From the sequence record OP352608: DNA of 64,000 bases. One strand, 5' to 3'. Source of the DNA: Escherichia phage vB_EcoM_SP13. Both the position numbers and the translations under genes were made by a program. Under the pieces are notes generated by a model, which saw only the letters and a program-made list of their open reading frames with translations, was not told the DNA's origin and searched no databases. Numbering within the stretch: position 1 is the first letter of the stretch; every line of letters starts with the position of its first letter. Of the stretch, positions 8,002 through 57,645 are shown one piece after another.

Positions 8002-8343
8002 TTAATTTCTTTTGAGAGGAATATGACGGTGGCTGCCATTATTTGGTTTAATAATGAGCATAAAAACGATTAGAAAGATGATGGCTGATATACTTAATTC
8101 AATCAGCGCGGCTTGAGATATAGATTGATCTTCGTGATACTGCTTTTGCATTTCTGCTTTCTTCTGAGCGCAAACTTCAGGTGATATGTAATCGCCTTTT
8201 GAGTTGCCATAATAAATTTCGCCGTTTTCAGAAATCAGTCTGCCGCAAATATCCGTTTCAGCCTTTGCACTTGACATCATAATAACGGTGCCGATAATAG
8301 CGGCGATAGTCCAGATTAACAGTTGTGATAAAGTGTTGTTCAT
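8002..8343 (-). CDS. membrane or exported protein (signal-peptide-like N-terminus and C-terminal transmembrane helix)
   Basis: ORF trimmed to MNNTLSQ with AAGAGG RBS; hydrophobic LLIWTIAAIIGTVIMMSSAKA and ISAIIFLIVFMLII segments. Confidence 0.55.
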   Translation of the reverse strand: MNNTLSQLLIWTIAAIIGTVIMMSSAKAETDICGRLISENGEIYYGNSKGDYISPEVCAQKKAEMQKQYHEDQSISQAALIELSISAIIFLIVFMLIIKPNNGSHRHIPLKRN

Positions 8344-15824: not shown

Positions 15825-15962
15825 ATGCAAAAGATTATTCAGTCACGTTATGTTAAAGTGCGAAATATTAATTGCAACTCTTTGCTTTCTTGGAAATGGG
15901 CTGTTTATGACTCGATGTTGATTGGCGTTTTAGTGGCAGGAGTGCTATTTAATATTCACTGA
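15825..15962 (+). CDS. 45-aa peptide with C-terminal hydrophobic helix
   Basis: Not in the ORF track (under 60 aa); strong AAGAGGA RBS 5 nt before the ATG; MLIGVLVAGVLF segment. Confidence 0.4.
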   Translation: MQKIIQSRYVKVRNINCNSLLSWKWAVYDSMLIGVLVAGVLFNIH

Positions 15963-16385: not shown

Positions 16386-17801
16386 ATGCAAACGGCACGC
16401 GAAATTGACAAAAATGGATTCTTGACGATTATGGGTTGTCCGATTTCGTCATTTGGCATTTTTGATTATTCTGCTGGTCAAGTTGGTCTTGATGGTGATC
16501 CGAATCGCATCGTAAAAGTCTATCGCCCTGAGTCAGCGGTGAAAGACCCCGAAGCGATAGATTCATTCAAAAATATCCCTTTCATCGACAATCACGAAAT
16601 GCTTTCTGGATTTGAAGGTGATGAGGATAACACAGCACCCGAAGAGTATGGCGTTGATGGCGTTCTGACTGGCAATGTTTATTATGACAAGCCATGGATG
16701 CGCGGCGACCTTAAAGTGTTTAGCCGTCGTCTGAAGAAGGCCATTGATTCTGGAAAGGTTGACTTGTCTTTGGGCTATGACTGTGAATTCATCATACAGT
16801 CTGGAGAGTTTGACGGGCAGCCGTATGAAGTGGTGCAGACAACTCTTCGCGGCAACCACATTGCTCTCGTGGACGTTGGTCGAGTACCAGGTGCACGGGT
16901 GCTGGATGGTCGTTGCTTTGACCATCTTTGTTTGACGACTGTAACACCATCCAACGAGGATTTAGACATGCCAAAACCGTTAAAAGGTAAAGCGCGTGAT
17001 AATGCTGTTGAACAGCTGAAATCACTGATCCCTGCGCTCGAACAATTTCTGAACGAAGAGAGTACTGAAGCTGCTCATCAGGACGAAGTTGAAGTGAAAG
17101 CAGAAGAGAAGGACTCAACCGAAAATCGTGAAGAAGTAATGGTTGATCCAGAAGTCAAGGCAGAAGCAGAAGAAACCCCAGAAGGTGAAGAGAAGTTTGA
17201 AGTTGAAACTGAATCTCACGCTGGCGGCGAACTTCCGCAATTGATCAGCCAAATCGAAGCACTTATTGCAAAACTGAAAGGTGGCGCGGTAGGTGATGAA
17301 GAAGAAGTTGAAGCCGAAGTCAAAGACGAAGAAGAAGTTGAAGTCAAGGCTGAAGATGTATCACCTTGCGACAAAGCTGAAGATGTGGTTAGCGGCCTGC
17401 AAAACAGCAACGTAAAGGGGGCTTCGGTCGAAAAAGATGACAAACCGACAAAAGCGGCGAAAGCGTCGCCAGGTCCAGCAAAAGGGGAACACTCAATGGC
17501 ATCTGATTCAGCAGTTGCTGCTTTCTACGCTGATTCTGCTCGTAAGAATAGCCTCTACCAGCGCCTGTCTAAAGTTGTTGGTGCCTTTGATCATGCAACT
17601 ATGGACTCCAAGTCCGTAGCGAAATATGGCGCTAAAAAGTTAGGCTTGAAGTGCGTTGATGGTGCTGAGTTTGACGTGGTGGATAATTATCTGCGCGGCG
17701 TTGAGCACGGTCAGAAACAGCGTGTAGTCGCAAAACAAAAGGCCGCTGCGGATTCTGCAGCAACTGACGAAGCATTTGAAGCTTGGTTGAAAGGGGAATA
17801 A
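16386..17801 (+). CDS. capsid scaffolding-like protein (N-terminal domain of unknown function plus acidic coiled-coil-like region)
   Basis: Position before the capsid gene; Glu/Lys/Ala-rich central third with EEVEVK-type repeats; start moved to ATG 16386 after GAGGGTGG. Confidence 0.5.
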   Translation: MQTAREIDKNGFLTIMGCPISSFGIFDYSAGQVGLDGDPNRIVKVYRPESAVKDPEAIDSFKNIPFIDNHEMLSGFEGDEDNTAPEEYGVDGVLTGNVYYDKPWMRGDLKVFSRRLKKAIDSGKVDLSLGYDCEFIIQSGEFDGQPYEVVQTTLRGNHIALVDVGRVPGARVLDGRCFDHLCLTTVTPSNEDLDMPKPLKGKARDNAVEQLKSLIPALEQFLNEESTEAAHQDEVEVKAEEKDSTENREEVMVDPEVKAEAEETPEGEEKFEVETESHAGGELPQLISQIEALIAKLKGGAVGDEEEVEAEVKDEEEVEVKAEDVSPCDKAEDVVSGLQNSNVKGASVEKDDKPTKAAKASPGPAKGEHSMASDSAVAAFYADSARKNSLYQRLSKVVGAFDHATMDSKSVAKYGAKKLGLKCVDGAEFDVVDNYLRGVEHGQKQRVVAKQKAAADSAATDEAFEAWLKGE

Positions 17802-17803
17802 AC

Positions 17804-18421
17804 ATGACTTTCCAAACTAGTGTAGGCCGTCAATATACAACTGGCTTTCCTGGCGACATCGTTCGCGACGGCCCACAGCGTGGGAAGCCAGGCCGAATCG
17901 TTAGCGCCAACGACGGTGCAAACGTAAACGCCATCAGCCGTGTGTTTGGTTTTAAGGCTGACGTGTCATTAATGGGTACTGGCCAGACCAAAACCTTGGG
18001 CGCGCAGGACTTTGAAGTTGAACTGGGCGGCACCAATTACTATGGCATCCTTGGCAACAGCAAGCGTTACGCTCTGTATGGCAACTCTACTGGTCCTTTG
18101 GGTGCCAGCATGGTTCTGCCTCAATATAGCGAAGGCGAGTTCTACGATATGTGCACGGGCCTCGTAGTTGAAGTGTTCAACCCAAGCACCAGTCCGCAGA
18201 CGCTGAACTACGGCGACCTGCTCGCTTATGTACCTAAAGGCATTTCCAGCGGTAACAACCCGAACAACTTGCCTATCGGTGCAATTATCGCCTATACTGG
18301 CTCACTGCCAACTGGCATGGTTGCCATTCCAGGCGGTATCGTGATTGACCCGACTGCTATTGCCCTTTCCGGCCCAAGCGTCCAGTCTTCCACTTATACC
18401 ATTGTACAATTGACTCGTTAA
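17804..18421 (+). CDS. hypothetical head protein
   Basis: ORF trimmed to ATG 17804 with AAAGGGGA RBS; Gly/Thr-rich; between scaffold and major capsid genes. Confidence 0.5.
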   Translation: MTFQTSVGRQYTTGFPGDIVRDGPQRGKPGRIVSANDGANVNAISRVFGFKADVSLMGTGQTKTLGAQDFEVELGGTNYYGILGNSKRYALYGNSTGPLGASMVLPQYSEGEFYDMCTGLVVEVFNPSTSPQTLNYGDLLAYVPKGISSGNNPNNLPIGAIIAYTGSLPTGMVAIPGGIVIDPTAIALSGPSVQSSTYTIVQLTR

Positions 18422-20169: not shown

Positions 20170-20625
20170 ATGTCATTAGATTACGAAAAGTTCAGAATTA
20201 AATTTCCACAGTTTGCTGATCAGGTTAAATTCCCTGACACAACACTTCAAGTATTCTATGACATGGCATGTGAATTTATTGAATCACAAGACAGTCCTTG
20301 TCGTGTTTTAAATGGCAGTAAATTGGAGCTGGCATTGGAATATATGACGGCTCATCTTTTATGCATAGCCGCAGACCAACAAGTGTCTGTGTCTTCTGGT
20401 GACGGAGTTGAACAAGGCGGCTTCGTGACTGGCGCAACAATTGGTGACATCACAGTGAACAAAGTCGCGCCGCCTGCGAGTGATGGCTGGGAATACTGGC
20501 TATCAAGCACTCCATATGGCATGGCGCTGTGGGCGCTTCTTCAAGCACTGGCCGTTGGCGGCTTGTCATTCGGCGGTCTTCCAGAGCGTGAAGGATTCCG
20601 TAAAATTGGTGGGGTATTCTGGTGA
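20170..20625 (+). CDS. hypothetical head-tail joining protein
   Basis: ORF trimmed to ATG 20170 after AAGGTG. Confidence 0.5.
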   Translation: MSLDYEKFRIKFPQFADQVKFPDTTLQVFYDMACEFIESQDSPCRVLNGSKLELALEYMTAHLLCIAADQQVSVSSGDGVEQGGFVTGATIGDITVNKVAPPASDGWEYWLSSTPYGMALWALLQALAVGGLSFGGLPEREGFRKIGGVFW

Positions 20626-21008
20626 GGATTCCTGGCGTAAACTTATATCGAGTTGCGACAAAGGTTATCGGTCGCCAACCGATTCAATATTACATGTACA
20701 AGGGGCGCACCCTTGATAAGATGCGCAACTATGTCACTACATATGAAGAACCAATCACCTTACTTGCTTCGGTGCAGGCTGTACTTCGAAACCAATACGT
20801 TGAGCTTGGTTTAGAGCTTCAAAAGAACTATGTCAAAATCTGGGTGGACAAAGACATTGTTGACCTTGACCGCGACGCTTCCGGCGACTATTTTGTGTTT
20901 GGTGGCAAAACATACAAGATGGAAGATGAAACGACATGGTTTGACCAAGATGGTTGGACGTCTTGCCTTGCCGTGGAAGTAAAACAAAGCTTTCCAGTGT
21001 CTACTTGA
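20622..21008 (+). CDS. hypothetical head-tail joining protein
   Basis: GTG start overlapping the upstream stop (GGTGA). Confidence 0.45.
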   Translation: MRIPGVNLYRVATKVIGRQPIQYYMYKGRTLDKMRNYVTTYEEPITLLASVQAVLRNQYVELGLELQKNYVKIWVDKDIVDLDRDASGDYFVFGGKTYKMEDETTWFDQDGWTSCLAVEVKQSFPVST

Positions 21009-37290: not shown

Positions 37291-37935
37291 ATGATTAATG
37301 CAAACGTAATATCTAAAGGGACCGGATGCAGCATGGATGTTGCTGAAAAATGGGTCGACCCCTTCAAGCAGGCTTGTGAGCACTACGGAATCAAAAGCAA
37401 GAATGCCATCGCGGCGTTGCTTGCAAACGTAGGAGTAGAAACAGGCAGTATGAAGACTTTTGTGGAGAACTTGAATTACTCCGCTCAAGGTCTTGCGAAT
37501 ACATGGCCTAGCCGTTACAGCGCCAGCGGTCGTTTCGGTGGCGCACCAAACTCCTTGGCATTGTCTATTGCCCGTAAACCAATGGAAATCGCCAATAATA
37601 CATATGCAAACCGAATGGGCAATGGTTCGGTAGCATCTGGCGACGGTTGGAAGTACCGTGGCCGTGGTGCCATTCAGCTGACTGGAAAGGCTAACTATGC
37701 AGAGTATTCAAAGCAATCAGGGTATGATGCATTGAATAACCCTGACATTTTGACTGAGCCGAAACACATCGCTGACAGCGCGGCATGGTTCTTCAAGAAC
37801 AGCGGTTGCATCCCACTTGCTGATGCTGGCGCATTTGATTCGACTGTGAAGCGGATTAACGGGGCCGCGCCGAATACGGCTAACCATGGAGATTTGCGAC
37901 GGAAGCGTTACAAGGATGCACTAGCAGTTATGTAA
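37291..37935 (+). CDS. endolysin, glycoside hydrolase family 19 (chitinase-like)
   Basis: AALLANVGVETGS and KYRGRGAIQLTGKANY match the two conserved GH19 catalytic-region segments; no transmembrane segment. Confidence 0.85.
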   Translation: MINANVISKGTGCSMDVAEKWVDPFKQACEHYGIKSKNAIAALLANVGVETGSMKTFVENLNYSAQGLANTWPSRYSASGRFGGAPNSLALSIARKPMEIANNTYANRMGNGSVASGDGWKYRGRGAIQLTGKANYAEYSKQSGYDALNNPDILTEPKHIADSAAWFFKNSGCIPLADAGAFDSTVKRINGAAPNTANHGDLRRKRYKDALAVM

Positions 37936-37937
37936 GA

Positions 37938-37967
37938 AAAAGGCCCATATGGGCCTTTGTTTATTTT
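37938..37967. terminator. bidirectional rho-independent terminator
   Basis: AAAGGCCCATATGGGCCTTT perfect hairpin followed by GTTTATTTTA; lies between convergent genes. Confidence 0.8.
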
Positions 37968-38173
37968 ACGGCTTCAACCTGGACGGGCGGCGCGGAACTT
38001 GTATCAATGTCTGGCAAGTCGAAGTAATACCCCGCCATGCCAATCACGCCAACAATCGCGGCCCGTGCCACCTTGTTGCTGATTGACTCCCCAATAAGCT
38101 TTACCAACAGGGACAAGATTTGAGACGTCAAAGCCTTTTTCAGCCTTTTGTTTTCTTCCAAATCTTTCTGCAT
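37961..38173 (-). CDS. small membrane protein (single transmembrane helix)
   Basis: ORF trimmed to MQKDLEEN after GGTGG; hydrophobic AIVGVIGMAGYYF segment. Confidence 0.5.
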   Translation of the reverse strand: MQKDLEENKRLKKALTSQILSLLVKLIGESISNKVARAAIVGVIGMAGYYFDLPDIDTSSAPPVQVEAVK

Positions 38174-38730: not shown

Positions 38731-38813
38731 TATAATTCACCTTTTGATTACGAATATTAATAGTATAGGCCGAAGGTTTTGAAAGTAAATAAGGCGAAAG
38801 GTAAATAAAAGAA

Positions 38814-38833
38814 AAGCCGGAGATTTCCGGCTT
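38814..38833 (-). terminator. rho-independent terminator for the minus-strand unit ending with the ligase gene
   Basis: AAGCCGGAGATTTCCGGCTT hairpin; on the minus strand it is followed by a T-rich run. Confidence 0.65.
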
Positions 38834-38906
38834 TATGTATACACTGTATATTAAATTCTATAAAACGACGAGATAGATTATCCGCACCAATTATTTATCT
38901 AGTGTC

Positions 38907-40474: not shown

Positions 40475-40990
40475 TTATTTTTCCTTTGATGCATTGAATT
40501 GATCGATTTTTATTTTAGCCTGATTATAAGTATCAATCAAGCTATTAACTTTCTCTTTTAATCGATTTGTTTCTGCGGCGAACTGAACAAGAAATCTGAC
40601 ATCCTCTTCTGATAGTCCACAGTTTCCTTCTGGGATAGAGAGGCGTCCAGTGGTCGCAGAGTCGGGCACACTCCTGAGTAACTCACGGGAGCAGCTGAGT
40701 TGCTCGCGCAACTTGACATTCCCAGACTTGTAACGAGCAATAGTGTCATCAGCAACCAGTTGCGCTTCCTGGCGACCCTTCTCATATGCCGATGCCGATT
40801 CAACCTGTAAAGTTGCAATTTGCTCTTCGAGTGCATTTATCTTGTCCTTACGCTCATTAAGCGATGTCAGATATTGATTATCCTTGGCCAGTGATGCGTT
40901 GGTTTGCTGCAGGTCTTCAACGTATGATCCAGCGGCAAACGCGCCAACAAGGGCCAGAATCTTCAGGAGCGGTACAATTCTTTCTATCAT
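40475..40990 (-). CDS. i-spanin (Rz-like)
   Basis: N-terminal transmembrane helix IVPLLKILALVGAFAAGSYV followed by coiled-coil-like region; contains an embedded lipoprotein ORF in another frame. Confidence 0.55.
   Translation of the reverse strand: MIERIVPLLKILALVGAFAAGSYVEDLQQTNASLAKDNQYLTSLNERKDKINALEEQIATLQVESASAYEKGRQEAQLVADDTIARYKSGNVKLREQLSCSRELLRSVPDSATTGRLSIPEGNCGLSEEDVRFLVQFAAETNRLKEKVNSLIDTYNQAKIKIDQFNASKEK
40558..40785 (-). CDS. o-spanin (Rz1-like outer-membrane lipoprotein) embedded within the i-spanin gene
   Basis: MRRVARKRNWLLMTLLLVTSLGMSSC: basic n-region, hydrophobic core, lipobox-like MSSC; short Pro-containing mature part with a second Cys. Confidence 0.55.
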   Translation of the reverse strand: MRRVARKRNWLLMTLLLVTSLGMSSCASNSAAPVSYSGVCPTLRPLDASLSQKETVDYQKRMSDFLFSSPQKQID

Positions 40991-41000
40991 GATGCACCAG

Positions 41001-41030
41001 ATAAATAAAAGGCCGCCAATCGGCAGCCTT
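41001..41030 (-). terminator. rho-independent terminator
   Basis: AAGGCCGCC-aatc-GGCAGCCTT hairpin (one mismatch); T-rich on the minus strand after it. Confidence 0.6.
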
Positions 41031-41967: not shown

Positions 41968-42525
41968 TTACTTTTTGCTTTTAGGCAAGGTTATTTTAGC
42001 TTCTTTGTATTCAAAAACGCTAATATCTTCACTAACTGGATTGCCTGCTTCCAGCTGTTCTTTTACAAATGACTTCAGTGTAGCAGAATGAACGCCTTGT
42101 TTCAATGTGGCTTCAACGCCATCTTCACGCAGCGCGGCAACAATCTCTTGCGCCTGTTCGATTTCTTCGCGACCGAACTCAGCCGTGACGCTGGACTTGA
42201 TCAAGCCGCCGTAACCGTTGTTGACAAGCCAATCGAAAACTTTTAATTCGTTTTCTTTCTTGATTGAAGCATTCACCTTGGACTCGACCTTGATTTTGGT
42301 CTTGTCCTCAAGCTTGATTTCAGACACACCAAGCTCATCCATTACGCCAGGAAGCAAAACAGTTTTGATTTCACTGATGCGCTGCTTTTGCATATCAGCT
42401 TCATCTTCAAGCTCTGTCAAAGCTTCTTGACGTTCTGCAAGTTCAGATACTAAGCGCGCAAGGCGCTCTTGAATGCTCTCAGGAGCGACCTGCGGCAAAT
42501 CATCTTCCCAATTAATATTGCTCAT
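41968..42525 (-). CDS. hypothetical acidic coiled-coil protein
   Basis: ORF in the replication module. Confidence 0.55.
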   Translation of the reverse strand: MSNINWEDDLPQVAPESIQERLARLVSELAERQEALTELEDEADMQKQRISEIKTVLLPGVMDELGVSEIKLEDKTKIKVESKVNASIKKENELKVFDWLVNNGYGGLIKSSVTAEFGREEIEQAQEIVAALREDGVEATLKQGVHSATLKSFVKEQLEAGNPVSEDISVFEYKEAKITLPKSKK

Positions 42526-51877: not shown

Positions 51878-52873
51878 TTATTTATTAGCAATATAAGCAA
51901 ATTTTTGATAGTTATTTGCTTTGATGAGTTTTTCAACTTCAACAAGGTCATGAGCAACGTCATCAAGCAAAATGTTTCGCCAAGTAGCAAAGCGACCGAC
52001 ACTAAATACGTTCAAATCCATGGTCAGCTGTAGGAGTAGAGCGTGTCGCAAGTCTTTCGGAATGTCGACAATCTTGCCATACTTCTGGTCGACCTTTTCA
52101 ACTTCTTCGAGATCGATGTCACTCCATGATAGGCCAAAGGCTGTCAATACTTCGTCAACTTCTGCACGCAACTTAATGTCACGGTAACGAGTAATGCCGC
52201 CAGCGGCTTCAACTGCGGCTTCACTTACGCTAACCAAAGGAATTGTTTCAATGATCAGTGTGTCACCAGTGATTGATGCGCGGTAAGTTCTGACGGAGTA
52301 GTCAGGAAAGTAAATGGTTTGATACAGTGCACACTTGCGCTTAATCTTAAAGCGGTAAACACGAATGTTTGCCTTATCGAATGAGAAATCAATCTTTTGA
52401 TCAATCCCAGCAAGCTTCATCATGACTGGCAGCGGCGACGTGTTGATGATTGGCGTCTCGCTATAGCCGCAAAGAGTATCAACAGGAGTATTAAAGAATA
52501 TGCGGTCACCCAGTTTGTCGACAAGCTGATCATAAAAGTCATCAGGCGCAATATAACGCGTTGCAGTTTTAAGCTTCATGATTGAGCGGCTACCGAATTG
52601 ATTAGTGACCTTCATGGAATACATATTGGCAAGGTTGATTGGGCAATGGTCGTGGTAGTAGTTGCCGCGAAAATACACAGCCTTGTCAACTGTCACGGCC
52701 TTAAAAGGGATTCCGGTAATACGGCTTACTTCTTCGCCGCGAAATCGTAGCAAAGCCTTGTGCTGTGGCGCTCGTTCCCCTGCTTCGTACACAATGGAGT
52801 TCGGGAAGTGACACGCGGTAATAAGTCCTGCCAAACCGCCGCCGATAATCATTACAGGTTGTTTCATGTTCAT
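51878..52873 (-). CDS. FAD/NAD(P)-binding oxidoreductase (UDP-galactopyranose-mutase-like flavoenzyme candidate)
   Basis: N-terminal dinucleotide-binding VMIIGGGLAGL; C-terminal FSVGRFATWRNILLDDVAHD resembles the G-R-x-A-x-Y ... D segment of the UGM/amine-oxidase superfamily; subfamily tentative. Confidence 0.55.
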   Translation of the reverse strand: MNMKQPVMIIGGGLAGLITACHFPNSIVYEAGERAPQHKALLRFRGEEVSRITGIPFKAVTVDKAVYFRGNYYHDHCPINLANMYSMKVTNQFGSRSIMKLKTATRYIAPDDFYDQLVDKLGDRIFFNTPVDTLCGYSETPIINTSPLPVMMKLAGIDQKIDFSFDKANIRVYRFKIKRKCALYQTIYFPDYSVRTYRASITGDTLIIETIPLVSVSEAAVEAAGGITRYRDIKLRAEVDEVLTAFGLSWSDIDLEEVEKVDQKYGKIVDIPKDLRHALLLQLTMDLNVFSVGRFATWRNILLDDVAHDLVEVEKLIKANNYQKFAYIANK

Positions 52874-57540: not shown

Positions 57541-57645
57541 ATGAAAGCCGTAAAGAAATACACATTAATCATTTCCCTTGTCATCATCCTGGGGCTATTA
57601 TATGTATTGGATATGGCATATTATTTGGCAGGGGTGAGTGGATGA
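57541..57645 (+). CDS. 34-aa hydrophobic membrane peptide
   Basis: MKAVKKYTLIISLVIILGLLYVLDMAYYLAGVSG; stop overlaps the start of the next gene (ATGA). Confidence 0.35.
   Translation: MKAVKKYTLIISLVIILGLLYVLDMAYYLAGVSG

Follow-up and report, generated by a model that had tools for sequence, protein, structure and literature searches.

A probable Rz/Rz1-type spanin pair with an embedded o-spanin gene among the replication genes of a Wifcevirus phage

Introduction

The closest described relatives of the locus that we present here are the spanin genes of other Wifcevirus phages, and the embedded pair is therefore already known. Kongari et al. 2018 (BMC Bioinformatics 19:326) catalogued phage ECML-117 among the embedded two-component spanins, with both subunits as singleton families. 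Their supplement gives the i-spanin sequence, the coordinates and an unannotated 75-aa o-spanin with the signal MRRVARKRNWLLMTLLLVTSLGISS. The Mansfield record (2019) annotates CPT_Mansfield_057/058 as i-/o-spanin, complete with ribosome-binding sites, both spanin genes are annotated in the BASEL phages Bas98-101, and RefSeq names the i-spanin in WFC, WFH, FEC19 and ECML-117. With a catalogue entry from 2018 and annotations in sister phages for the same pair, the locus is an ordinary one. The literature that we searched held no experiments on any Wifcevirus spanin. Unusually fast lysis has been reported for Wifcevirus phages, in one study that is cited in the BASEL paper.

In this work we analysed a window of 64,000 nucleotides, by which we mean the whole stretch of DNA that was examined. 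The genome is a circular permutation of the Escherichia phage F13 record OP745617.1 (genus Wifcevirus), with 100% identity over a 5.6-kb stretch around the spanin locus, and it is referred to as F13 below. The F13 GenBank record calls the i-spanin a 'hypothetical protein' and lacks the o-spanin.

The pair is orthologous to that of ECML-117, where it has the same genomic position and the same embedded +1-frame o-spanin. The two i-spanins are 98.8% identical, and identity across the genus is 96-100%. F13, like WFC, differs from ECML-117, Mansfield and Bas98-101 in having Met for Ile at position -3 of the lipobox and an i-spanin of 171 aa for one of 172 aa.

Results

Gene anatomy of the locus

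The features of the locus are collected in Table 1. Within the 516-nt i-spanin gene the o-spanin ORF takes up nt 155-433 in its long form, stop codon included, or nt 206-433 in its short form, the start of which is Met18 of a stop-free 92-aa ORF. The coordinates that a first-pass annotation of this DNA had assigned to the i-spanin, the embedded ORF and the endolysin were all exact in our ORF check.

Table 1. Coordinates of the spanin locus, its presumed partner and a syntenic gene of other phages. Positions are those of the window unless another sequence is named.
Feature	Position	Strand	Basis
i-spanin (Rz-like) gene, 171 aa, 516 nt	40475..40990	(-)	ORF; PHROG 1327; annotated 'Rz-like spanin' or 'i-spanin' in relatives
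i-spanin predicted membrane anchor, codons 5-23, IVPLLKILALVGAFAAGSY	40922..40978	(-)	Kyte-Doolittle
o-spanin (Rz1-like) ORF, short form, 75 aa	40558..40785	(-)	+1 frame, wholly within the i-spanin gene
o-spanin ORF, long form, 92 aa, first ATG upstream	40558..40836	(-)	start in Mansfield/BASEL annotations
AAGGA Shine-Dalgarno-like element, 8 nt 5' of ATG 40836	40845..40849	(-)	spacing kept in 5/5 lineages; RBS in the Mansfield record
o-spanin lipobox codons Met-Ser-Ser-Cys	40708..40719	(-)	Cys codon at 40708-40710; Cys invariant
o-spanin second (predicted periplasmic) Cys, in the invariant motif GVCPTL	40666..40668	(-)	alignment of lineages
Terminator-like hairpin and T-run, ending about 10 nt 5' of the i-spanin start codon	40999..41030	(-)	also in 5/5 lineages
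GH19-type endolysin, 214 aa, presumed functional partner	37291..37935	(+)	Pfam PF00182; PHROG 181, E=1.9e-69; annotation
201-aa protein in the syntenic slot	GoodVibes 17666-18271 (L015 2167-2772); MTx L016 6940-7545		synteny

The two proteins

The product of the outer gene matches PHROG 1327, 'Rz-like spanin' (E=1.9e-26). Neither this protein nor the o-spanin has a Pfam family match at E <= 0.01, Rz/Rz1 models included, so the link to lambda Rz/Rz1 is one of structure and remote homology only. Only one hydrophobic segment came out of a hydrophobicity scan of the i-spanin; it covers residues 5-23 and scores 1.80 over 19 residues and 2.33 over 15 (Kyte-Doolittle). The AlphaFold model, which rests on six homologues and has a mean pLDDT of 77.8, predicts a helix at residues 5-106, an unstructured linker at 107-127 and a further helix at 128-170. 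The predicted build, TMD-helix-linker-helix, is the one described for lambda Rz. According to the Kongari et al. 2018 supplement, the ECML-117 i-spanin is 63% helical, with a coiled coil spanning roughly residues 25-77. All of the lineages that we aligned keep both Cys100 and Cys124. Together, the PHROG match, the hydrophobic segment and the AlphaFold helices support the first-pass description of the 171-aa protein as i-spanin-like with an N-terminal transmembrane helix.

Remote homologues found by tblastn include the annotated i-spanins of phages PY54 and P840 and of Burkholderia phage Mica. A partial homologue is also present in Pantoea phage Nafs113 (L017 4467-5234; 46.5% identity over residues 83-153). 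There, a putative o-spanin gene is annotated directly upstream of the i-spanin homologue and is not embedded in it.

In its short form the o-spanin starts with MRRVARKRNWLLMTLLLVTSLGMSS, which would be cleaved ahead of CASNSAAPVSYSGVCPTLRPL. This 25-residue signal is canonical, with four K/R among the first 7 residues and the Cys at position 26, and the 75-aa form satisfies the PROSITE-type lipoprotein pattern. After cleavage 50 aa would remain, among them 4 Pro and a second Cys (mature position 15, C57 in the numbering of the long form), which is invariant in all lineages aligned. These properties agree with what had been proposed for the embedded ORF, i.e. a basic n-region and a lipobox-like signal followed by a short, Pro-containing mature part with a second Cys, and we class its product as a predicted lipoprotein. 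Under the standard Lol sorting rule, Ala at position +2 directs a lipoprotein to the outer membrane. Residue +2 is Ala here (CAS follows the predicted cleavage site), not Asp, and the o-spanin would consequently sort to the inner leaflet of that membrane.

The Met at lipobox position -3 in F13 (40717-40719 (-)) is allowed by the PROSITE-type pattern and lies outside the strict consensus [LVI][ASTVI][GAS]C quoted by Kongari et al. 2018. WFC shares this Met, while the other Wifceviruses aligned have Ile and the diverged relatives Ile or Thr. The nucleotide change that gives Met in the o-spanin puts Val for Ile in the i-spanin. No second hydrophobic segment was found in the o-spanin, the next-best stretch scoring 0.59 over 15 residues (Kyte-Doolittle), so the protein is not a unimolecular spanin of the T1 gp11 or PB1 type.

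Genomic context and transcription

Upstream of the pair, on the same strand, are the genes for DNA polymerase III alpha, an SNF2-type helicase and Pam3 gp33-like and gp34-like proteins. Downstream on this strand follow a MazG-like pyrophosphatase, whose gene abuts that of the i-spanin (TAA then ATG), an ATP-dependent DNA ligase, a 180-aa secreted protein and a 70-aa protein. The GH19 endolysin gene is 2540 bp away on the opposite strand. It is the last gene of a rightward structural (tail-fibre) operon that converges on the spanin strand, and its product has no N-terminal hydrophobic (SAR) segment.

The hairpin 5' of the i-spanin gene, whose stem-loop lies at 41009-41030, is an annotated terminator in WFC and Mansfield. 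It leaves no room for a promoter ahead of the i-spanin ATG, from which we infer that the pair is expressed by read-through together with the replication genes. Further terminator-like hairpins are found after the ligase gene, at 38813-38834 (-), and at 37939-37958 (+). The three hairpins bracket a unit of spanin, MazG-like and ligase genes, with the endolysin kept apart from the converging operon.

The coordinates and the annotation agree with the first-pass account of this layout, in which the pair sits among replication genes, 2.5 kb from the endolysin and on the opposite strand, and no holin, annotated or detectable, lies beside either gene. The locus is thus not a contiguous holin-endolysin-spanin cassette, the endolysin being on the other strand and a recognisable neighbouring holin being absent. 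That account also called the layout 'atypical'. This is true relative to the lambda cassette only. Within the phage group the layout is conserved throughout the clade, and T4 and GoodVibes offer precedents for it.

The endolysin gene can be exchanged within this layout. In two diverged relatives (L011 9065-9520 and L012 9078-9530) a 151-aa enzyme (PHROG 90) occupies the exact position of the 214-aa GH19 enzyme of F13 and L013; the spanin locus stayed.

Holin and other spanin candidates

Holin annotations are absent from Bas100 and from the Mansfield features that we examined. The 145-aa multi-TMD protein that is annotated as holin in Pbunavirus has no homologue in the window, and the F13 genome outside the window encodes no strongly hydrophobic protein. 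The window holds weak membrane-protein candidates at 8002-8340 (-), 37961-38173 (-), 15825-15962 (+) and 57541-57645 (+), none of which matches a holin family.

Two of these deserve a description. The first (8002-8340) is a 112-aa protein that is found in Wifcevirus only and is 'hypothetical' in every annotated record. Two segments, residues 8-26 and 80-98, are strongly hydrophobic, the 55-residue loop contains two Cys, and the C-terminal tail is basic; the protein is possibly a holin or an exclusion protein. The second (37961-38173) is the 70-aa protein, which belongs to PHROG 5165 (function unknown); its gene adjoins and converges on that of the endolysin. It is conserved in Wifcevirus, in the diverged relatives and in about 290 Pseudomonas phage (Pbunavirus-type) records. 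Two of its 15-residue segments are moderately hydrophobic, and its tail is variable and rich in Pro. By position only, it is a weak holin candidate.

Searches of the window for other spanins were negative, both for homologues of the Pbunavirus u-spanin and for further credible lipoprotein ORFs. In GoodVibes, an ORF that is missing from the annotation and lies between the genes for tail fibre and endolysin was considered as a u-spanin and rejected, as it encodes a soluble 142-aa protein. The phage JJ01 paper labels ORF85 (621 nt, beside the SNF2 helicase) as 'U-spanin'. By position and length, ORF85 is the Pbunavirus counterpart of the DUF7307 (Pam3 gp33-like) gene. The window copy of this gene, at 41968-42525 (-), encodes a protein that was not flagged as hydrophobic in our membrane-protein scan, and we do not take the label as evidence for a spanin. 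The label is apparently a mis-annotation, one that may spread to other records.

In GoodVibes and Serratia phage MTx, the syntenic slot between the gp34-like and MazG-like genes, which holds the Rz/Rz1-like pair here, is filled by a non-homologous 201-aa protein (Table 1). The N-terminus of this protein is rich in Gly, its central region looks helical, and its C-terminal part has two hydrophobic segments. It belongs to PHROG 1544 (unknown function) and has a sub-threshold Pfam match to GTA_holin_3TM (E=0.018).

The pair might instead be a genuine complex of an inner-membrane protein and an outer-membrane lipoprotein that serves a non-lytic role in the envelope, e.g. in superinfection exclusion or an early step of infection. 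This would account for its place among early/middle replication genes, away from the endolysin. The genome has no recognisable holin, so the lysis pathway can be traced in part only. We nevertheless consider such a role very unlikely. The i-spanin is homologous to Rz-like spanins that lie within canonical cassettes, and all the architectural hallmarks of spanins are present, conserved periplasmic cysteines included. The T4 spanins are equally unlinked from the T4 holin and endolysin genes. Furthermore, phages of Gram-negative hosts whose endolysin is soluble do not normally manage without a spanin, and the genome offers no other candidate.

Conservation and selection of the embedded frame

An IMG/VR scan of the locus returned four near-identical loci only. 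We compared the locus in five lineages, namely F13 and four metagenomic relatives obtained by protein search and contig look-ups, whose i-spanins are 52-65% identical. The +1-frame ORF is open at the same place in all five, and gene order is also kept on the contigs of the four relatives. Without exception, these lineages share the motifs CPTL.PL and ET.DYQ, the lipobox Cys and the second Cys.

Each third codon position of the i-spanin gene falls on a second position in the embedded frame, so raised identity at these sites is the signature to be expected of a translated and selected frame. Over the 75-codon overlap the pairwise third-position identity among the five lineages is 0.72. It is 0.40 upstream of the overlap, 0.51 downstream of it and 0.47 in the 17-codon extension of the long form (Met1 to Met18). 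The difference between 0.72 in the overlap and 0.40-0.51 outside it indicates that the second frame is under selection.

A sceptic could hold that only the 171-aa protein is functional and that the embedded ORF is never translated, having arisen as a side effect of the residues that make up a coiled-coil protein. Some of our results could be read in this way. A long open alternative frame (at least the observed length) arises by itself in 2-16% of synonymous-codon shuffles. The PROSITE pattern is not specific either, as a six-frame scan of the whole window matched three other ORFs, although these are without a Leu-rich core and none lies within a spanin-like gene. Within Wifcevirus there are only 25 variable sites, with no difference between overlap and non-overlap, a level of variation that is too low to be informative about constraint.

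When frame length and signal are taken together, the picture is different. Alternative-frame ORFs that match or exceed the observed length and also carry a lipoprotein signal were seen in 15/5000 shuffles of the F13 i-spanin gene and in 3-48/5000 for each of the four diverged relatives, i.e. in at most 1% of shuffles per lineage. With the ORF, both cysteines, the two starts and the Shine-Dalgarno element all kept in relatives with 52-65% identity, and with i-spanin third positions markedly more conserved within the overlap only, an untranslated by-product is scarcely credible. The earlier proposal of an Rz/Rz1-like embedded pair is thus strengthened by the PHROG match, the TMD-helix-linker-helix model and a lipoprotein ORF that is conserved and selected in diverged relatives.

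Two conserved start codons for the o-spanin

The o-spanin frame has two in-frame ATGs, at 40836 and 40785, which are 17 codons apart and conserved in 5/5 lineages. The upstream ATG is retained in spite of changes in the i-spanin residue that overlaps it, which may be N, Y, H or D (always xAT then G). It has the Shine-Dalgarno sequence AAGGA in every lineage and gives a 42-residue, very basic signal peptide that breaks the PROSITE position rule. The internal ATG is without a Shine-Dalgarno sequence and yields the textbook lipoprotein signal, and the third-position constraint on the i-spanin sets in at about this codon.

Published start choices differ accordingly: the Mansfield and BASEL records use the upstream ATG, whereas the table of Kongari et al. 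2018 gives the internal ATG for ECML-117 (75 aa), as did the first-pass annotation. We tentatively raise the idea, which we think improbable, that the o-spanin is made from both starts, with differing efficiencies of export or lipidation that set the amount or timing of active spanin. Dual starts of this kind would loosely resemble the dual-start motif of holins.

Discussion

We conclude that the locus is very probably a two-component spanin of the Rz/Rz1 type. The mechanism that we propose for it follows the lambda Rz/Rz1 model, as summarised in Kongari et al. 2018. The i-spanin would be anchored in the inner membrane by residues 5-23, with its mostly helical domain reaching into the periplasm. 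The o-spanin would be translated from the +1 frame of the same mRNA, exported, lipidated on the lipobox Cys and cleaved, leaving a 50-residue lipoprotein on the inner leaflet of the outer membrane. By analogy with lambda, the two subunits are expected to bind via their C-terminal parts, forming a complex that spans the periplasm, and the invariant cysteines (C100 and C124 of the i-spanin, mature C15 of the o-spanin) may allow covalent homodimers. The complex would be trapped in the peptidoglycan mesh until holin and GH19 endolysin remove the wall, and could then fuse or disrupt the inner and outer membranes.

The position of the genes is easily accommodated by a lytic spanin. The pair is part of the leftward replication operon, directly after the conserved terminator and abutting the MazG-like gene. 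Spanins do not act before the wall has been removed, so co-transcription of the pair with the endolysin is not required, and the distance between them would be harmless.

The significance of the locus beyond annotation is small. The F13 record could be improved by naming the i-spanin and adding the o-spanin CDS, which it lacks. Of the lysis system of Wifcevirus only a part is known, in that the endolysin and the spanin pair can be named and the holin cannot. The locus is also a clean genetic handle, since mutations that leave the i-spanin sequence unchanged can abolish each of the o-spanin starts.

How does the pair compare with known systems? It resembles lambda Rz/Rz1 in the o-spanin gene, which is wholly embedded in the +1 frame of the i-spanin gene and encodes a small outer-membrane lipoprotein (here a predicted one). 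The i-spanin is predicted to share with Rz the type II topology in the inner membrane and a periplasmic part in which a linker joins two helical segments, and periplasmic cysteines occur on both subunits. Unlike mature lambda Rz1, which has 40 aa with 10 Pro, the mature o-spanin has 50 aa with 4 Pro; the F13 pair also lies outside a holin-endolysin-spanin cassette and is without a Pfam family match.

Unlinked spanin genes have several precedents. Genes 18.5/18.7 of T7 are likewise far from the gene 3.5 lysozyme. PseT.3/PseT.2 of T4 form a two-component spanin that is encoded away from the holin and endolysin genes (Kongari et al. 2018, Fig. 8 legend). They differ from the F13 pair in being separated, non-overlapping genes, and we detected no sequence similarity. 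In the related Pbunavirus group, the u-spanin of GoodVibes (51970-52353) is also unlinked, 31 kb from the endolysin (20345-21007), and is unlike our pair a single protein with an AWAC lipobox and a C-terminal TMD. Finally, one of the nearest annotated homologues from beyond the clade is that of Burkholderia phage Mica (33% identity, E=9e-7). Its i-/o-spanin pair is embedded, as in F13, and forms part of a contiguous class II holin / SAR endolysin / i-spanin / o-spanin cassette, in a record that cites PF03245.
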